The notes: generated from the letters alone by a model not told the origin. DNA of 64,000 nucleotides, filler included, from an uncultured Methanosarcinales archaeon (GCA_964608065.1; 4 parts of 4 records of this genome joined end to end with filler, not necessarily neighbours in it), one strand, 5' to 3'. Positions 57,367 through 64,000 are shown, counted from the first letter of the whole stretch. A program made the numbers and translations.

Positions 57367-57861
57367 ATGAGAAAAAAAGGTTCTTTAAACTTATCAATGA
57401 ATGCAATTGTTATTCTGATTTTAGCTATAACCTTACTTGGACTTGGTTTGAGTTTTATGAGAGGATTGTTCAAACAGATGGAAGGTAAAGTAAATGAGGC
57501 TGTAAGCGCACAAGAGCTTTCAAATCCTCCTACAATGGATAATGTTCTAACAACTGCTCCAGGTGATATAACTTTAAGAAAAAGCGAAGTTGGAGAAATC
57601 ATTATTGCTTATATGAGTACTTATGCTGGAGAAGATTCGTGTAGTTTAGATATTGATAATACAGGGGGTGCAGTTGTAGCAGACTTAAAATGGTCTAGCT
57701 CATCAACAAATATGCAACAAGACCAGATTAATAAATGGACTGTTGGTGTTGATAATGTTGATGGTGCTACAACAGGTACTGAATTGCAGACTGCAACTAT
57801 GACATGTACTGTAAGTAGTACAAGCTATACTAAAGATATTATTATAACATTTACAGATTAG
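57367..57861 (+). CDS. Pilin-like protein with class III signal peptide (paralog 1)
   Basis: MRKKG/SLNLSMNAIVILILAI...; GAGGT SD. Confidence 0.8.
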   Translation: MRKKGSLNLSMNAIVILILAITLLGLGLSFMRGLFKQMEGKVNEAVSAQELSNPPTMDNVLTTAPGDITLRKSEVGEIIIAYMSTYAGEDSCSLDIDNTGGAVVADLKWSSSSTNMQQDQINKWTVGVDNVDGATTGTELQTATMTCTVSSTSYTKDIIITFTD

Positions 57862-57870
57862 AGGTGAAAA

Positions 57871-58434
57871 ATGAGAAAAAAAAAAAAAGGATCTTTAAGC
57901 TTATCAATGAATGCAATTGTTATTCTGATATTAGCTATAACCTTGCTTGGACTTGGTTTGAGTTTTATGAGAGGATTGTTCAAACAGATGGAAGTTAAAA
58001 CACAAGCTGCTGTAAGCGCACAAGAGCTTTCAAATCCTCCTACATCTGATAACCCAATAACTACAGCACCTGGCACTATTACATTAAGAGAAAGCGAAAG
58101 AGGCAAGATTTTAATGGCATTTATGAATATGGGACCTGGAACTAAATATTGCCAATTGAATATGGAAGATGGTGATGGTTTGGATATATCTCCTAGTGGT
58201 ACAAGTGGTATCAAAAATATTGTAATATTTAATGCAGGTATATCACAAATGGCACAAGACCAGATAAACACATGGACTCTTTCAGTTGATGGTAGTATAC
58301 CAGGTACTGGTACACAGATTGTTACTGCAAAAGTATGTTGTGATGACACAGGAGCTGATCCAGTAAGTTGTACATCTGCAACAAATGGCGGTGCTGAGTT
58401 CAAAAAAGACATGATGATAACAGTTACTACATAA
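57871..58434 (+). CDS. Pilin-like protein with class III signal peptide (paralog 2)
   Basis: MRKKKKG/SLSLSMNAIVILILAI; N-terminus nearly identical to paralog 1. Confidence 0.8.
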   Translation: MRKKKKGSLSLSMNAIVILILAITLLGLGLSFMRGLFKQMEVKTQAAVSAQELSNPPTSDNPITTAPGTITLRESERGKILMAFMNMGPGTKYCQLNMEDGDGLDISPSGTSGIKNIVIFNAGISQMAQDQINTWTLSVDGSIPGTGTQIVTAKVCCDDTGADPVSCTSATNGGAEFKKDMMITVTT

Positions 58435-58450
58435 TTAAGAGGTGAGTATC

Positions 58451-58663
58451 ATGAAAAAAAAACTTACTCGTGATGAAGAATTTGGAATTATGAAGCTAGT
58501 ACTGGACAAGTTTTTATGGCTTGGATTTGGTATTATGGCATTTGGCCTTTATAAGATGGTCAATGCAGACATTACTAGTGGAATTGCATGGATGATAACA
58601 GGAGCAATAGTTTTGGTATTGTTCATGGTTGTTATTGTCAAGGAATATGAGGTAATAAAATGA
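58451..58663 (+). CDS. Small 2-TM membrane protein
   Basis: MKKKLTRDEEFGIMKLVLDKFLWLG...VKEYE; GAGGTGA SD. Confidence 0.8.
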   Translation: MKKKLTRDEEFGIMKLVLDKFLWLGFGIMAFGLYKMVNADITSGIAWMITGAIVLVLFMVVIVKEYEVIK

Positions 58664-59202
58664 GGGGGGAAAAAGGATCATTAAATCTTTCCTTAAACTT
58701 CCTTGTTATTCTGATTTTAGCTATAGCTATATTAGGCTTGGCTTTGAGTTTCACAAGAGGTGTTTTTTCAGATATGGAAGCTAAGGTTAAAGTGGCAGTA
58801 AGTTCTACAGAATTATCAAATCCTCCTACAAAAGATAATCCAATTACTACGACTCCATTTAAAGTTGAGGTTAAACAAGGAGAAAACACAGAAATTATTG
58901 TTGCATTTATGAATATAGAACCTGAAACTTTAGTATATACTCTAGATGTTACAAACACTGAGGGAGATAGTTGTCAGACAGCAGGAAACTGTGTTGTGCC
59001 AATGCAATTTAGCACAGCTGATTACTCAATGAGAGGTGGACAGATAAATACATGGGCTATGATATTCCATCCTGTAAGAGGTGACAGCCCTACACAATTC
59101 GGAAATTATCTCTATACAGCCAATGTTATATGTGGAGCTGCACAGGGTTGCAGCACAGAATTAAGACGTACTATTGACTTTGAAGTCATAGTTACTACCT
59201 AG
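58660..59202 (+). CDS. Pilin-like protein with class III signal peptide (paralog 3)
   Basis: MRGEKG/SLNLSLNFLVILILAI; shares ELSNPPT.DNPITT.P and QINTW with the other paralogs. Confidence 0.8.
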   Translation: MRGEKGSLNLSLNFLVILILAIAILGLALSFTRGVFSDMEAKVKVAVSSTELSNPPTKDNPITTTPFKVEVKQGENTEIIVAFMNIEPETLVYTLDVTNTEGDSCQTAGNCVVPMQFSTADYSMRGGQINTWAMIFHPVRGDSPTQFGNYLYTANVICGAAQGCSTELRRTIDFEVIVTT

Positions 59203-59211
59203 GGTGATAAT

Positions 59212-59284
59212 ATGAAAAAAAAACTTACACGTGATGAAGAATTTGGAATTATGAAGCTAGTACTGGACAAGTTTTTATGGCTTG
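59212..59284 (+). CDS. Second copy of the small 2-TM protein (truncated by gap)
   Basis: Near-identical DNA to 58451-58523 (MKKKLTRDEEFGIMKLVLDKFLWL). Confidence 0.75.
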
Positions 59285-59384
59285 NNNNNNNNNNNNNNNN
59301 NNNNNNNNNNNNNNNNNNNNNNNNNNNNTTAATTAATTAANNNNNNNNNNNNNNNNNNNNNNNNNNNNNNNNNNNNNNNNNNNN

Positions 59385-59418
59385 CAATAGGTCGGGGGTT
59401 CGAATCCCCTTGAGCCCA
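59385..59418 (+). tRNA. 3' part of a tRNA gene (identity hidden by gap)
   Basis: GGTC-GGGGG-TTCGAAT-CCCCT-TGAGCCC-A: T-arm and acceptor 3' strand. Confidence 0.8.
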
Positions 59419-59485
59419 TTATTTTCCAACATATATTTTCTAAAACCAAAAACAATATAAATGATATTTCCTACTTAAGTTATCG

Positions 59486-60013
59486 ATGAAAAAGCCAGAT
59501 AAGCTTGAAAATCAGCCTTGTCCTATATGTAATAAGAATACTCTTACTTTAATAGAGGAAGGTTATGAGATTCCTTTCTTTGGAAAAGCTTTTCTATTCT
59601 CTATGAACTGCAGCAATTGCAAATATCATAAAGCTGATGTTGAAGCAGCAGAGCAAAAAGAACCTGTTAAATATGAATTAGAGATTGACAATGAAAAAGA
59701 CATGCACATTAGAGTTGTTAAATCGTCTCAAGCTACAGTTAAGATACCTCATATAGCTACAATAGAATCAGGACCAGGGTCTAATGGATATATCACAAAT
59801 GTTGAAGGTATTTTTAACAGAGTAAAGGTTCAGACAGAGCATTTAAGGGATGATGCAGAAGATAAAGCAGACAGGAAAAAAGCAAAGAACAGAGTTAAGA
59901 AAATAATCAATATAATATGGGGTAAAGAAAAGTCTAAATTAATAATTGAAGATCCTTCTGGTAATTCATCTATAATTTCTGATAAAGCAAAGAAAACTGC
60001 TTTGAAAAAGTAA
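59486..60013 (+). CDS. ZPR1-type zinc-finger protein
   Basis: CPIC..IPFFG..CSNC, RVVKS, ITNVEG and IEDPSGNS motifs. Confidence 0.93.
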   Translation: MKKPDKLENQPCPICNKNTLTLIEEGYEIPFFGKAFLFSMNCSNCKYHKADVEAAEQKEPVKYELEIDNEKDMHIRVVKSSQATVKIPHIATIESGPGSNGYITNVEGIFNRVKVQTEHLRDDAEDKADRKKAKNRVKKIINIIWGKEKSKLIIEDPSGNSSIISDKAKKTALKK

Positions 60014-60047
60014 AGTATTTATATTAAAGATAAATAAGCTTTCTTAT

Positions 60048-60800
60048 GTGGTAATAATGGTTAAAATAGGTATAATTGGTGGCTCAGGATTAGAAGATCC
60101 TAAAATATTAAAGGATGCTAAGGAAAAGGAAGTTAAAACACCTTATGGTAATGCTAAAGTCACTGTTGGTAATATTGAGAATATTGATATTGTCTTAATC
60201 TCAAGGCATGGAAAACAACATACAATTACTCCAACACATGTTAACAACAGAGCTAATATTGATGCTTTAAAAAAGGAAAAATGCACTCATATAATTGCAA
60301 CAACTGCTTGCGGAAGTTTAAGAAAAAATATTGGAAGAGGAGATTTGGTGATTCTGGACCAGTTTATTGATTTCACAAGATTAAGGAATTTATCATTCTA
60401 TGATAAGTTTGAGCCTCATAAACCAATCCATGTTTCTATGGCAGAGCCATTTTCCAAGGAATTAAGAGAAATTTTAATTGATACTGCTAAAGAATTGAAA
60501 CTAAAACATCATGGAAAAGGAACTGTAATTACAATTGAAGGTCCAAGGTTTTCAACAAAAGCTGAAAGTAAAATGTTTTCAAGCTGGGGTGCAGATGTAA
60601 TCAATATGAGCATTGCTCCTGAATGTATTTTAGCTAATGAAGCAGAAATACCTTATGCTGTTGTAGCTATGAGCACTGATTATGATTGTTTATTTGATGA
60701 TGTTGAACCTGTAACATGGGAAGAGATATTGAAAGTTTTCAAACAGAATGTAGATAAAGTGACAAGTTTATTGATTAAATCTATTCCTAAAATTCAATAA
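60048..60800 (+). CDS. mtnP: 5'-methylthioadenosine / 5'-deoxyadenosine phosphorylase
   Basis: IGIIGGSG, TPYG, RHG..H, DQFIDFT, IEGPRFSTKAES and STDYD motifs. Confidence 0.93.
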   Translation: MVIMVKIGIIGGSGLEDPKILKDAKEKEVKTPYGNAKVTVGNIENIDIVLISRHGKQHTITPTHVNNRANIDALKKEKCTHIIATTACGSLRKNIGRGDLVILDQFIDFTRLRNLSFYDKFEPHKPIHVSMAEPFSKELREILIDTAKELKLKHHGKGTVITIEGPRFSTKAESKMFSSWGADVINMSIAPECILANEAEIPYAVVAMSTDYDCLFDDVEPVTWEEILKVFKQNVDKVTSLLIKSIPKIQ

Positions 60801-61800
60801 TTACTTTAATAGAATTTTTAGCTTCAGAAACAAGCTTAAAACCTTTTTTTATTTCTTCTAATTTCAATCTGTGTGTTATCATATCTTTGACATTAATTTT
60901 TCTTTTTTTGATTAGTTCAATAGCTTCCTTTAAATCTTTTTCAACAGCTGCATAAGTTGTAGTTAATGTTATTCCTTTCATCCATAGTTCATTGAATGGG
61001 ATTTCAACTTTAGTGTTGGGGTCTGTTGGAGCAAACCATAAAATTGTTCCGCTTTTTTCAACTGAGTTTAATGCTTGTTTTATTGCAGGCAAAGCACCTG
61101 TACATACAATTACTTTGTCTGCTAACTGGTTGATTAATCCTTTAACTTTATTTGGTACATCTTCCTTGGCATTTATTACAAAATCAGCTCCTAATTTTTT
61201 TGCTGATTTTAACCTGAATTCATCAATGTCTGTTGCAATAACTTTTGCACCTTTTAACTTAGCTAATTGGATATGTAATAATCCAGAAATACCGCTTCCA
61301 ATGACTAGGACTGTATCCCCTTTCTTAATATCAGCAATTCTTTGGCCTCTGACAACACATCCTAATGGCTCTATAAAAGTTCCATCTTCAAAATCAATTT
61401 CTTTTGGCAACTTAAAGGTTCCATTTTCTATATTTATTTTTGGAATTCTAATAAATTCAGAAAAACCACCAGGATGAAAATTAGTTTTTTTTAATGTGTC
61501 ACAAGCAATGTGTTTGTCATTTAAGCAGTACTTGCATTTATTGCATGGAACATGGTGTGTGGAAAAAACAATGTCGCCTTTCTTATAACTTTTTACATTT
61601 TTTCCTGTTTCAACAACTTCTCCTGTCATTTCATGACCAAGAACTAAAGGTGCTTTCTTAGCTCTGTACCATTCCATCACATCACTGCCGCAAATACCGC
61701 ATGCTTTAGTTTTTACAAGAATTTCATTATCATTTATTTTAGGTTTTGGAAGTTCTTCTATTCTAATGTCGTTGTTGTTGTAGTAAACTGCTGCTTTCAT
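60787..61800 (-). CDS. Zn-dependent MDR dehydrogenase (sorbitol/threonine DH-like)
   Basis: CGICGSD, LGHE, CNKCKYC...C, EPLGC, GSGISG, and DID (NAD-preferring). Confidence 0.92.
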   Translation of the reverse strand: MKAAVYYNNNDIRIEELPKPKINDNEILVKTKACGICGSDVMEWYRAKKAPLVLGHEMTGEVVETGKNVKSYKKGDIVFSTHHVPCNKCKYCLNDKHIACDTLKKTNFHPGGFSEFIRIPKINIENGTFKLPKEIDFEDGTFIEPLGCVVRGQRIADIKKGDTVLVIGSGISGLLHIQLAKLKGAKVIATDIDEFRLKSAKKLGADFVINAKEDVPNKVKGLINQLADKVIVCTGALPAIKQALNSVEKSGTILWFAPTDPNTKVEIPFNELWMKGITLTTTYAAVEKDLKEAIELIKKRKINVKDMITHRLKLEEIKKGFKLVSEAKNSIKVIIEF

Positions 61801-62063
61801 CTTTTATAGATATACTTTAACCAAATTTTTTTTAAAAAACGAAGAGACAAAATAGATAATATAAATCCAATTGTGGGCACTAAAGCACTAAGCCATGGAT
61901 ACGGAACTTTTATGATCTTTAAGAAGATAACTATAATCAAATAAGTCATAATAGAAATAAGCAATTTTCTTGTAAAACTTGTTTCCCAAGCCTTATCCTT
62001 CTCAACCTTTGTGTTCCTCTCAATTATAGATTTAATTTGTTTATCCATTCTAACCAACATCAA
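61797..62063 (-). CDS. Small 2-TM membrane protein
   Basis: ERN.KVE.DKAWETS.TR, ALVPTIGFILS; ATGA overlap with the dehydrogenase gene. Confidence 0.75.
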   Translation of the reverse strand: MMLVRMDKQIKSIIERNTKVEKDKAWETSFTRKLLISIMTYLIIVIFLKIIKVPYPWLSALVPTIGFILSILSLRFLKKIWLKYIYKR

Positions 62064-62094
62064 AATTCAATTTTAAAATAAAAAAAAAAAAAAA

Positions 62095-62889
62095 TTACTT
62101 TTTCTTTTTGCTTAGCTCTTCATATAACTGATAAGCTTCTTTAACAGTTGCTTTTTCATGGACAACTGCTCTTACAGATTTTATCATTGCTATTGGGTTT
62201 TCTGACTGGAAAATGTTTCTTCCCATGTCAACTCCAACTGCTCCTGCTGTAATAGCATCATGAGCTAATTTTAAAGCATCTTTTTCAGGAATCTTTTTAC
62301 CGCCTGCTATGACTAATGGTACTGGTGTGTTCTCTACCATTTTGTCAAAACCTTCTTCGCAATAATAAGTTTTTACCCATGAAGCTCCTAGTTCAGCTGC
62401 TATTCTGCAGGCTAGTCCTAAGTAACGAGCATCTCTTACCATTTCTTTTCCAACTGCAGTTACTGCTAAGACTGGAATTCCGTATTGTTCACCCTGGTCA
62501 ATTAATTTTGTCAGATTTTTTAGGCCTTGTTTTTCAAATTTAGATCCAACATATATTGAGTATGCAACTCCTGATGCATTTAACCTTACAGCGTCTTCCA
62601 TAGATACTGTGATTTCTTCATTAGAAAGATCTTCTGATAATATGCTGTTGCATCCAGAGACTCTTAATACAATTGGATTGTCAACACCAGGATCAATAGA
62701 TGTTCTTAACGCGCCCCTCGTTAACATCAAACAATCAGCATATGGTGCTAATGGCATTACAGCTTTGTTTAGATTCTTTAAACCAGTTGTTGGTCCTAGA
62801 AAATAACCATGATCTACAGCTAACATAACAGTTTTACCAGTATTTGGTTTTATAATTCTTTTTATTCTATTTGCTTTTCCCCAATCCAT
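62095..62889 (-). CDS. lsrF: LsrF-type 3-hydroxy-5-phosphonooxypentane-2,4-dione thiolase (class I aldolase fold)
   Basis: DWG, TGKTVMLA.DHGYF.GPTTGL, SMEDAVRLN, VGKEMVRD.RY, KTYY, IAGGKK and GVDMGRNIFQS match E. coli LsrF as recalled. Confidence 0.88.
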   Translation of the reverse strand: MDWGKANRIKRIIKPNTGKTVMLAVDHGYFLGPTTGLKNLNKAVMPLAPYADCLMLTRGALRTSIDPGVDNPIVLRVSGCNSILSEDLSNEEITVSMEDAVRLNASGVAYSIYVGSKFEKQGLKNLTKLIDQGEQYGIPVLAVTAVGKEMVRDARYLGLACRIAAELGASWVKTYYCEEGFDKMVENTPVPLVIAGGKKIPEKDALKLAHDAITAGAVGVDMGRNIFQSENPIAMIKSVRAVVHEKATVKEAYQLYEELSKKKK

Positions 62890-62955
62890 TTTTGATTACC
62901 CCCTAATCTTTTATTTAATTGGAAAAGTTATTGAATGTTTATAAAGGTTTCTAAC

Positions 62956-63999
62956 TTATTTAAACAAACTTATAATACCTTTCTTATTAGCTTTAATAAC
63001 CCCTTTTTCAGTTATAATCCCAGAAATATACTTAGCAGGTGTTATATCAAATGCAGGGTTAAGTGCTTTGCTTTGTTTTGGAGAGATTCTTACTTTTTTT
63101 ATTTCATTGTTATCTGTGCCTTGCACTAGGTGTACTTCATCTTCATCTCTTTCTTCTATGGGGATTTTATCTCCATTAATGCATTCTAAGTCAATAGTTG
63201 AAGTTGGAGCTGCAACATAGAATGGAATATTATTTTCTTTAGCTAAAACAGCTTTTTCATAAGTTCCTATTTTATTTGCAACATCACCATTAACAGCTAT
63301 TCTATCTGCTCCTACAATGCAGATATTAATTTCCTTTTTTCTCATATAATAGCCAGCAGCATTGTCAGCTATTATAGCATGAGGAATTTTTTCTTCTGCC
63401 ATTTCAAATGCTGTTAACCTAGCACCCTGTAATCTAGGCCTTGTTTCATCAACAAAAACAAATATTTTCTTGCCAGAATAATGTGCAGTTCTTATTGGAG
63501 CTAAAGCTGTTCCATAATCAACAGTAGCTAATGCTCCTGCATTGCAATGTGTTAGAATTTTGTAATTGTTTTTAATTAATTTATTTCCAAATTCACCAAT
63601 TTTTTTTGTATTTTCAACACTTTTATTAGCATATTGTTGTGCAACTTTATATGGGTCTTTATTATTTTTTATTGCTTTAAACACAAAATCCAACCCATCT
63701 TTTAGATCATAAGCAGTTGGCCTTGTTTCTAATAATATTTTATAGGATTCTTTGATATAATCAAGAAATTTATTTTTATTTCCATTAAATAGCATAGCAG
63801 CTTGAGCTAGGCCAAATGCTGCTGTTGCTCCTATTGCAGGAGCACCTCTTACAATCATTGTTTTGATTGCATAAGCTGTCTCTCCAGTAGTTTTTAAGTC
63901 AACTATCTCAAACTTATGAGGCAGCAAAAGCTGATTAATCATACTGATTATTTTTCCTTTCATCCATACTGTCCTATAATCTTTATTGTTAATTTTCAA
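62956..63999 (-). CDS. mtnA: Methylthioribose-1-phosphate isomerase
   Basis: MIVRGAPAIG, TRPTA, LTHCNAGALATVDYGTAL, DETRPRLQGARLT, GADRI..NGDVANKIGTY and NPAFDITP motifs. Confidence 0.96.
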   Translation of the reverse strand: MKINNKDYRTVWMKGKIISMINQLLLPHKFEIVDLKTTGETAYAIKTMIVRGAPAIGATAAFGLAQAAMLFNGNKNKFLDYIKESYKILLETRPTAYDLKDGLDFVFKAIKNNKDPYKVAQQYANKSVENTKKIGEFGNKLIKNNYKILTHCNAGALATVDYGTALAPIRTAHYSGKKIFVFVDETRPRLQGARLTAFEMAEEKIPHAIIADNAAGYYMRKKEINICIVGADRIAVNGDVANKIGTYEKAVLAKENNIPFYVAAPTSTIDLECINGDKIPIEERDEDEVHLVQGTDNNEIKKVRISPKQSKALNPAFDITPAKYISGIITEKGVIKANKKGIISLFK

Positions 64000-64000
64000 C

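Follow-up and report, generated by a model that had tools for sequence, protein, structure and literature searches.

LsrF and an unnamed zinc-dependent dehydrogenase as a candidate oxidative exit from 5'-deoxyadenosine salvage in an uncultured Methanosarcinales archaeon

The dihydroxyacetone phosphate (DHAP) shunt and 5-deoxyribose salvage proceed through MtnP or DrdK, the isomerase MtnA or DrdI, and a class II aldolase, DrdA or Ald2 (PMC6079011, PMC8102628). Nucleosides are also broken down to DHAP, via ribulose-1-phosphate (Ru1P) and with a paired NADH enzyme, in the haloarchaeal non-carboxylating pentose bisphosphate pathway, which employs a ribose-1,5-bisphosphate (R15P) isomerase, an Ru1P aldolase of class II and a reductase carrying the annotation glycerol-1-phosphate dehydrogenase (PMC9700705). 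DHAP is likewise a product of Escherichia coli LsrF, whose thiolase reaction, as given in the E. coli annotation and in a review (PMC8016206), converts 3-hydroxy-2,4-pentanedione-5-phosphate (P-HPD) and coenzyme A (CoA) to DHAP and acetyl-CoA. Here we describe a locus at the end of a 64,000-nucleotide window (the whole stretch of joined contigs that was analysed, filler included) from an uncultured Methanosarcinales archaeon (GCA_964608065.1; 1.40 Mb, 31% GC, 96.8% complete), in which mtnP and mtnA stand together with lsrF and a gene for a zinc-dependent medium-chain dehydrogenase/reductase (Zn-MDR).

The five open reading frames (ORFs) of the locus are intact, occupy the positions originally assigned to them and share a single contig, G000:C96, which spans 59385-64000 of the window. 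The methylthioribose/5-deoxyribose-1-phosphate isomerase gene mtnA (62956-63999, minus strand, TTG start; TIGR00512, 394 bits against a cut-off of 279) is followed by lsrF (62095-62889, minus strand; NF006081, 414.6 bits against 297), encoding a Schiff-base TIM-barrel enzyme and proposed CoA-dependent thiolase, by a small ORF, and by the gene for the 337-aa Zn-MDR (60787-61800, minus strand). These four genes are co-oriented as first described, with gaps of 66 bp and 31 bp and then a 4-bp overlap, and the dehydrogenase converges on the methylthioadenosine (MTA)/5'-deoxyadenosine phosphorylase gene mtnP (60048-60800, plus strand, ATG at 60057; TIGR01694, 281.1 bits against 274.85), the stop ends overlapping by 14 bp. 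The phosphorylase and MtnA-type isomerase on which the DHAP shunt and the Drd pathway depend are therefore both present, and the locus has in common with the shunt this entry, 5-deoxyribulose-1-phosphate, DHAP and a gene position downstream of mtnA. It differs from the shunt in having LsrF and the Zn-MDR in place of a DrdA-type aldolase, and in its predicted products, acetyl-CoA and NADH rather than acetaldehyde.

LsrF and the Zn-MDR form a real, conserved and unannotated two-enzyme module that most likely swaps the aldolase of 5'-deoxyadenosine salvage for oxidation and thiolysis, and on balance we favour a specific form of this replacement, in which the Zn-MDR would oxidize C4 of 5-deoxyribulose-1-phosphate and LsrF would then yield DHAP and acetyl-CoA. 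MtnP would phosphorolyse 5'-deoxyadenosine, a by-product of S-adenosylmethionine (SAM), to adenine and 5-deoxyribose-1-phosphate, an activity known for the family; adenine would reach inosine monophosphate via Ade and Hpt, or via Apt in relatives, a role suggested by the genes present; and MtnA would form 5-deoxyribulose-1-phosphate, as is also known for its family. The new reaction would be the next, in which the Zn-MDR and NAD+ oxidize the C4 hydroxyl to P-HPD, and LsrF would then act with CoA as the E. coli enzyme does. On paper the chemistry is sound, since C4 oxidation of 5-deoxyribulose-1-phosphate gives the substrate of E. coli LsrF, as the original prediction had stated; the difference from the lsr system would be in the source of that substrate, an isomerase in E. 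coli and a dehydrogenase here. The known parts would be the phosphorylase, isomerase and aldolase route and the LsrF reaction, and the new part one dehydrogenase activity.

A parallel exists in threonine dehydrogenase (Tdh) and Kbl, where a Zn-MDR turns CH3-CHOH into an acetyl group, a CoA-dependent lyase frees acetyl-CoA, and the unfavourable oxidation is drawn on by thiolysis. The uphill oxidation proposed here would be pulled by the same logic, and Tdh is the best NCBIfam match of the Zn-MDR, but the score is far lower (191.7 against a cut-off of 458.35), the partner is a TIM-barrel Schiff-base enzyme rather than a pyridoxal phosphate enzyme, and the substrate would be a sugar phosphate. 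The pair would stand in for the class II aldolase of the shunt and would avoid free acetaldehyde. Alternative entrants could be MTA, giving methylthioacetyl-CoA, and adenosine, giving glycolyl-CoA.

Linkage of the two genes is conserved well beyond this genome, as had been anticipated. Among loci fetched with the dehydrogenase from many phyla of archaea and bacteria, of which the best 80 of 93 by likeness to the query were compared (a few of them duplicating the order sample below, and many ending short), lsrF adjoins the dehydrogenase in 66, always on the same strand, and lies within 300 bp of it in 61, with both gene orders occurring; for these reasons the arrangement is not chance. A true lsrF is present elsewhere in the genome for 11 of the remaining 14, which brings the pairing to 77 of 80. 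Whole genomes were searched for 50 of the 80 loci, and in these further genomes, chosen by their dehydrogenase, MtnA is found in 47 of 50 and MtnP in 40 of 49 (one duplicate left out). The gene apt recurs in the LsrF/dehydrogenase loci.

Within the order, 301 genomes were searched, and 21 match LsrF at 1e-40; one of these, G119, was dropped (37% identity, ADH-synthase-like), leaving 20. The dehydrogenase occurs in 19 genomes, all of them with LsrF, and in none of the 281 genomes without it. MtnA accompanies LsrF in 18 of the 20 and is otherwise present in 29 of the 281, MtnP is present in 19 of the 20, and mtnA or mtnP lies within 14 of 19 LsrF regions, each of 16 kb or less. The class II aldolase of the order, counted at E<1e-50 with alignment A1 (three weaker, longer matches uncounted), is found alongside LsrF in only two of the 20, whereas 14 of the 29 MtnA genomes without LsrF have it, directly adjoining mtnA in 11 of these 14. 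On the basis of these counts the LsrF/dehydrogenase pair seems to replace the DHAP-shunt aldolase, and, in line with the original prediction, the two systems are largely complementary across those genomes of the order that have MtnA. The distribution of the dehydrogenase tracks that of LsrF and not that of the class II aldolase, with no occurrence in the 14 aldolase-only genomes, as expected if it makes the LsrF substrate. These counts take in unpublished genomes, namely G132, G207 and G209 from the LsrF set and G182 and G112 from the 29 with MtnA but no LsrF, and with them removed the dehydrogenase is present in 16 of 17, MtnA in 15 of 17 and the aldolase in 2 of 17 against 14 of 27.

MtnA is the sole MtnA/R15P-isomerase-like tblastn match in the genome at E<1e-4, in contrast to the haloarchaeal pathway, for which no further R15P-isomerase-like match is present, and MtnB, which follows MtnA in canonical methionine salvage, was not found in the genome, as first claimed for the window: the single PF00596 match in the genome scores 68.6 against 137.05 on TIGR03328 (MtnC and MtnD were not searched for). 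A class II aldolase had been said to be lacking, and this is true of the window, but an AraD-type epimerase over the NF006047 cut-off is encoded on contig C113 as the one class II aldolase-fold protein of the genome. A DrdA-type aldolase was not found in the genome, and a profile of the order's own aldolases gave nothing besides the AraD-type protein, for which an aldolase side activity is possible. The genome has 38 radical-SAM matches and encodes triosephosphate isomerase. Contig C18, which carries eight of these matches, shares a 55-bp overlap with the contig of the AraD-type gene.

The identity of LsrF is supported against ADH synthase and DhnA, as the original prediction proposed, with 414.6 bits against 297 for NF006081, 185.8 against 299.45 for TIGR01949 and 130 against 430 for NF040816, the ADH-synthase and fructose-bisphosphate (FBP) aldolase models thus being under their cut-offs. 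It shares 56% identity with E. coli LsrF, lacks the N-terminal ~30 residues of that protein, and keeps D57, H58, K203, Y205, G226, G227, D251, G253 and R254 in E. coli numbering (K173, D26, D221, G196, G197, G223 and R224 among them in query numbering). The 2009 report on E. coli LsrF (PDB 3GKF; PMC2728841) names K203 as the Schiff-base residue, along with D57 and D251, and G226, G227, G253 and R254 as phosphate residues, and it found no product in vitro. The Schiff-base and phosphate residues are shared, and the proposed substrate and products are also those of the E. coli enzyme (PMC2728841, PMC8016206): LsrF of this genome would use CoA to cleave the beta-diketone thiolytically into DHAP and acetyl-CoA.

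The Zn-MDR exceeds the cut-off of none of the 25 NCBIfam models shown and belongs to no named equivalog, with Tdh (TIGR00692), GatD, IdnD and IolM all under cut-off. Its catalytic zinc ligands (C37/H56/E57), structural zinc ligands (C86/C89/C92/C100), E144-P145 and D191 are invariant in 54 of 54 aligned rows, and W44-Y45-R46, H82-H83, R151 and Y283 are invariant within the subfamily. The Glu-Pro pair is a signature of polyol and threonine dehydrogenases and the Asp marks the NAD position; alignment to sorbitol dehydrogenase gives the same motif reading, and among solved structures its nearest relatives are dehydrogenases of ketose, sorbitol and threonine. Based on these motif meanings, the Zn-MDR is predicted to use NAD and to act on one particular secondary alcohol, probably a phosphorylated one, and we propose it as a 5-deoxyribulose-1-phosphate 4-dehydrogenase of an unnamed subfamily. 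The structure model (pLDDT 96.4) and Foldseek support the MDR fold and leave the substrate unsettled. The subfamily is large: of 8,000 candidates scored, 7,977 pass E<=1e-70, although this threshold may also admit neighbouring subfamilies. Among proteins of 591-2000 aa none was found in which the dehydrogenase is fused to LsrF or MtnA, which is weak evidence of absence, and two matches in that search were left unused as eukaryotic sorbitol-dehydrogenase repeats. The plasmid collection held no member of the subfamily (three matches, 38% identity), and no cultured carrier was identified.

Taken as a whole, the original interpretation is partly supported: gene content, linkage and distribution agree with it, an energy yield is unsupported in this genome, and plain aldol cleavage with aldehyde reduction is a less likely alternative. 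A number of observations weigh against the oxidative reading. The Fisher p of 0.012 for aldolase against LsrF is overstated since genomes of one order are not independent, and both systems are missing from 15 of the order's 47 genomes with MtnA. No common third enzyme was apparent, by a BLAST screen only, in the mtnA regions of 13 genomes without LsrF and the order's aldolase (L180-L192; 11 of the 15 neither-system genomes, plus G271 and G092 among them), and another exit may operate in MtnA genomes of this kind. Beyond the order, a gene for MtnA or MtnP is near the dehydrogenase in only 12 of the 80 loci, 12 of 34 archaeal and none of 46 bacterial, and the phyla of these 46 are without a measured MtnA background rate. 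Of the 50 further genomes, at least 18 carry a class II aldolase domain (a short one in L059 escaped the search). A class II aldolase co-occurs in 12 related loci, and in G023, G266 and L081 the cluster itself holds both systems. Residue D251 is replaced by Asn in 22 of 87 LsrF sequences, which form one clade of the tree. For the Zn-MDR, the lead over ethanol-type alcohol dehydrogenases is moderate (215 against 175 bits) and the Foldseek TM-scores of the model all fall between 0.84 and 0.90.

The supply and use of CoA present a further difficulty. CoaBC, CoaE and the archaeal dephospho-CoA kinase were not found in the genome, nor were acetate kinase (AckA) and the ADP-forming acetyl-CoA synthetase (ACD), and with none of these enzymes found the original prediction that the route is energy-yielding is unsupported here. 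CoaBC is missing from this genome and its congener, and from five of the 20 LsrF genomes in all, though overall it is somewhat commoner in LsrF genomes (15 of 20) than in the others (12 of 29). CoA-using enzymes are present, namely an AMP-forming Acs and the alpha subunit of a ferredoxin oxidoreductase, and the cell seems either to use CoA while making none or to have CoA genes that are unassembled; the combination suggests CoA uptake. An aminopropyltransferase-like domain in the genome scores under its cut-off. On contig C8 (L203:1399-3742), a gene with AMP-binding, acyl carrier protein and acyltransferase-like parts is broken into two overlapping ORFs.

The rival that survives best, though unlikely, is a non-oxidative DHAP shunt, in which LsrF would act as a class I aldolase on 5-deoxyribulose-1-phosphate, or on its methylthio or ribulose analogue, giving DHAP and an aldehyde that the MDR would reduce to the alcohol. 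Direct aldol cleavage by LsrF is chemically possible because the active site is of the class I aldolase type (PMC2728841), and the Schiff-base Lys and general-base Asp are both present. Such a shunt would account equally well for the replacement of the class II aldolase and needs no CoA, for whose synthesis genes were not found, and a precedent for aldolase plus reductase is given by the Ru1P aldolase and glycolaldehyde reductase of haloarchaea (PMC9700705), though the reductase there, from its annotation, is of a family other than MDR. However, LsrF does not retain the catalytic Tyr of related aldolases such as MJ0400 and the FBP aldolase of Thermoproteus tenax (PMC2728841), and E. coli LsrF, a thiolase, branches within the LsrF family of the dehydrogenase-linked loci. 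The polyol/threonine-dehydrogenase features and invariant Arg, Tyr, Trp and His of the MDR go beyond what acetaldehyde would appear to need. The best argument against plain aldol cleavage is the co-occurrence of dehydrogenase and LsrF: an aldehyde reductase of general use would be expected next to the class II aldolase as well, yet none of the aldolase-only genomes has the MDR.

It is quite unlikely that the pair serves another substrate or runs in the other direction, acting on a different 5-substituted or deoxy-pentulose phosphate that is not SAM waste, or building a deoxy-sugar phosphate in reverse from DHAP, acetyl-CoA and NADH, in which case the tie to mtnA and mtnP would be peculiar to these archaea. 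The absence of both genes from the neighbourhood of the pair in bacteria is what such a scheme would predict, and some clusters also hold class II aldolases. LsrF is also found in different contexts: in Bacteroidota it occurs with DhaK/DhaL, and in Alphaproteobacteria its companions are FGGY kinases, a glycerol-3-phosphate-dehydrogenase-like enzyme or a short-chain dehydrogenase/reductase (SDR). The frequency of MtnA and MtnP in the further genomes, the near confinement of the pair to MtnA genomes within the order, and the lack of any kinase, transporter or downstream biosynthetic gene that recurs beside the pair across lineages all argue against such a scheme.

Examples of these settings include L153 and L154 (Parabacteroides and Aureibacter), where dhaK-dhaL precede lsrF and no lsrK or lsrG lies within the stretch, and L157 and L158 (Sagittula and Shinella), where lsrF is accompanied by genes for a sugar ABC transporter and an FGGY kinase, to which are added either a 651-aa SDR or a class II aldolase together with a glycerol-3-phosphate-dehydrogenase-like enzyme; the latter clusters are possibly other oxidise-then-thiolyse sugar pathways. 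In L090, L091, L094 and L095 a PRK08660 class II aldolase gene and deoC come after the dehydrogenase, and lsrF is farther off or not found. L059 (792-1226) and L063 (110-565) have, in divergent orientation to lsrF, a truncated ORF that resembles a class II aldolase but misses part of the usual motifs and is possibly a relic.

Degradation of autoinducer-2 (AI-2) by LsrF as in E. coli, with an incidental neighbourhood, is very improbable, even though LsrF passes the curated NF006081 model and such lsrF genes are interpreted as AI-2 machinery in PMC10787695 and PMC11442133, and the gene content alone makes it unlikely: the genome yielded neither LuxS nor an FGGY kinase nor an ABM-fold protein, searches with LsrK, R, B, C, D and G of E. 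coli gave no match there or in loci L025-L123, and LsrK is over cut-off in none of 69 genomes (none of 49 further genomes among them; best 266 of 528 bits), in a scan where control genomes were also under cut-off though K-12 LsrK scores 1000.9. As the E. coli operon comprises LsrK, LsrG, LsrACDB and LsrR, and the only Lsr-system matches in the genome are generic ABC ATPases, the possibility raised with the original prediction that lsrK or lsrG elsewhere in the genome explains lsrF finds no support, nor were lsrBCD or luxS found.

The relationship between LsrF of the dehydrogenase-linked loci and that of the AI-2 system could be explored with a tree of 90 rows, to which lsr operons contribute just three and in which the outgroup is distant. 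The LsrF of E. coli, together with five taken from plasmid records, falls inside the dehydrogenase-linked family, as sister to the LsrF of this genome and that of its congener (support 96/88), while the LsrF of a Bacillus lsr operon is placed elsewhere on a long branch; a constraint holding the 80 other LsrFs as one clade is weakly rejected (p-AU 0.043). The topology suggests that AI-2 processing borrowed LsrF from the dehydrogenase-linked pathway. The fullest version of the proposal, that LsrF and the Zn-MDR constitute an undescribed oxidative route from 5'-deoxyadenosine to DHAP, acetyl-CoA and NADH, present in many phyla, with a new dehydrogenase and with an ancestral role of LsrF that was later recruited for AI-2, is tentative, and we place it slightly on the doubtful side. 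No prior description was found in the literature searched, with most subscription journals outside the reach of that search. If true, the proposal would provide a function for a large unnamed dehydrogenase subfamily, would mean that a lone lsrF is no sign of AI-2 signalling, contrary to the two papers above, and would derive a quorum-sensing enzyme from housekeeping metabolism. The contribution of this locus is the ade-hpt extension described next, the order-wide counts, and the lack of CoA-synthesis and acetate-forming enzymes.

The end of the locus contig and the start of contig C103 share an exact 55-bp overlap, the same length as at other joins of the assembly, and because of this overlap ade and hpt can be placed upstream of mtnA on the same strand. 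The 3' end of hpt, encoding hypoxanthine phosphoribosyltransferase, is at 63989-64000 (minus strand), where the start of mtnA overlaps its stop by 11 bp, and the remainder is on C103 (TIGR01203, 177.1 bits against 150), as is the adenine deaminase gene ade, beyond the window (TIGR01178, 610.7 bits against 472.5). The transcription unit is likely ade-hpt-mtnA-lsrF-orf-mdr, facing mtnP, and would therefore cater for both the base and the sugar of one nucleoside. Its co-transcription is judged from gene spacing alone, a scan having returned 22 promoter and 2 terminator sites where shuffled sequence gives 21.7 and 2.2, which is the chance level. The small ORF between lsrF and the dehydrogenase (61797-62063, minus strand, 88 aa) has no Pfam or NCBIfam family and a hydrophobic C-terminal half (hydropathy up to 2.4); considered as a core part, this membrane ORF was rejected, with a homologue in one of the 80 related loci and none in congener G001, and it is probably not one. 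A 70-aa protein with four Cys that are conserved lies beside lsrF in 17 locus hits (e.g., L095:4192-4404, L099:661-882 and L042:8488-8700); it has no Pfam or NCBIfam family and is absent from this genome.

Upstream of mtnP is an archaeal ZPR1-related zinc-finger gene (59486-60013, plus strand; TIGR00340, 165.2 bits against 117.95) for which no role is proposed and which adjoins mtnP/apt in several relatives. The start of the contig (59385-59417) resembles the 3' half of a tRNA gene with a T-arm-like hairpin; no tRNA was called by ARAGORN in a scan of 59300-64000 because the gene is cut. Before the gap, the window has three paralogous ORFs and a 73-aa membrane ORF at 57367-59285, the start of this last ORF being repeated at 59213 just ahead of the gap. 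The paralogues have what we take to be a class III signal-peptide-like N-terminus and are presumably archaeal pilin-like, and other ORFs in the window are presumably RNA-polymerase-like.

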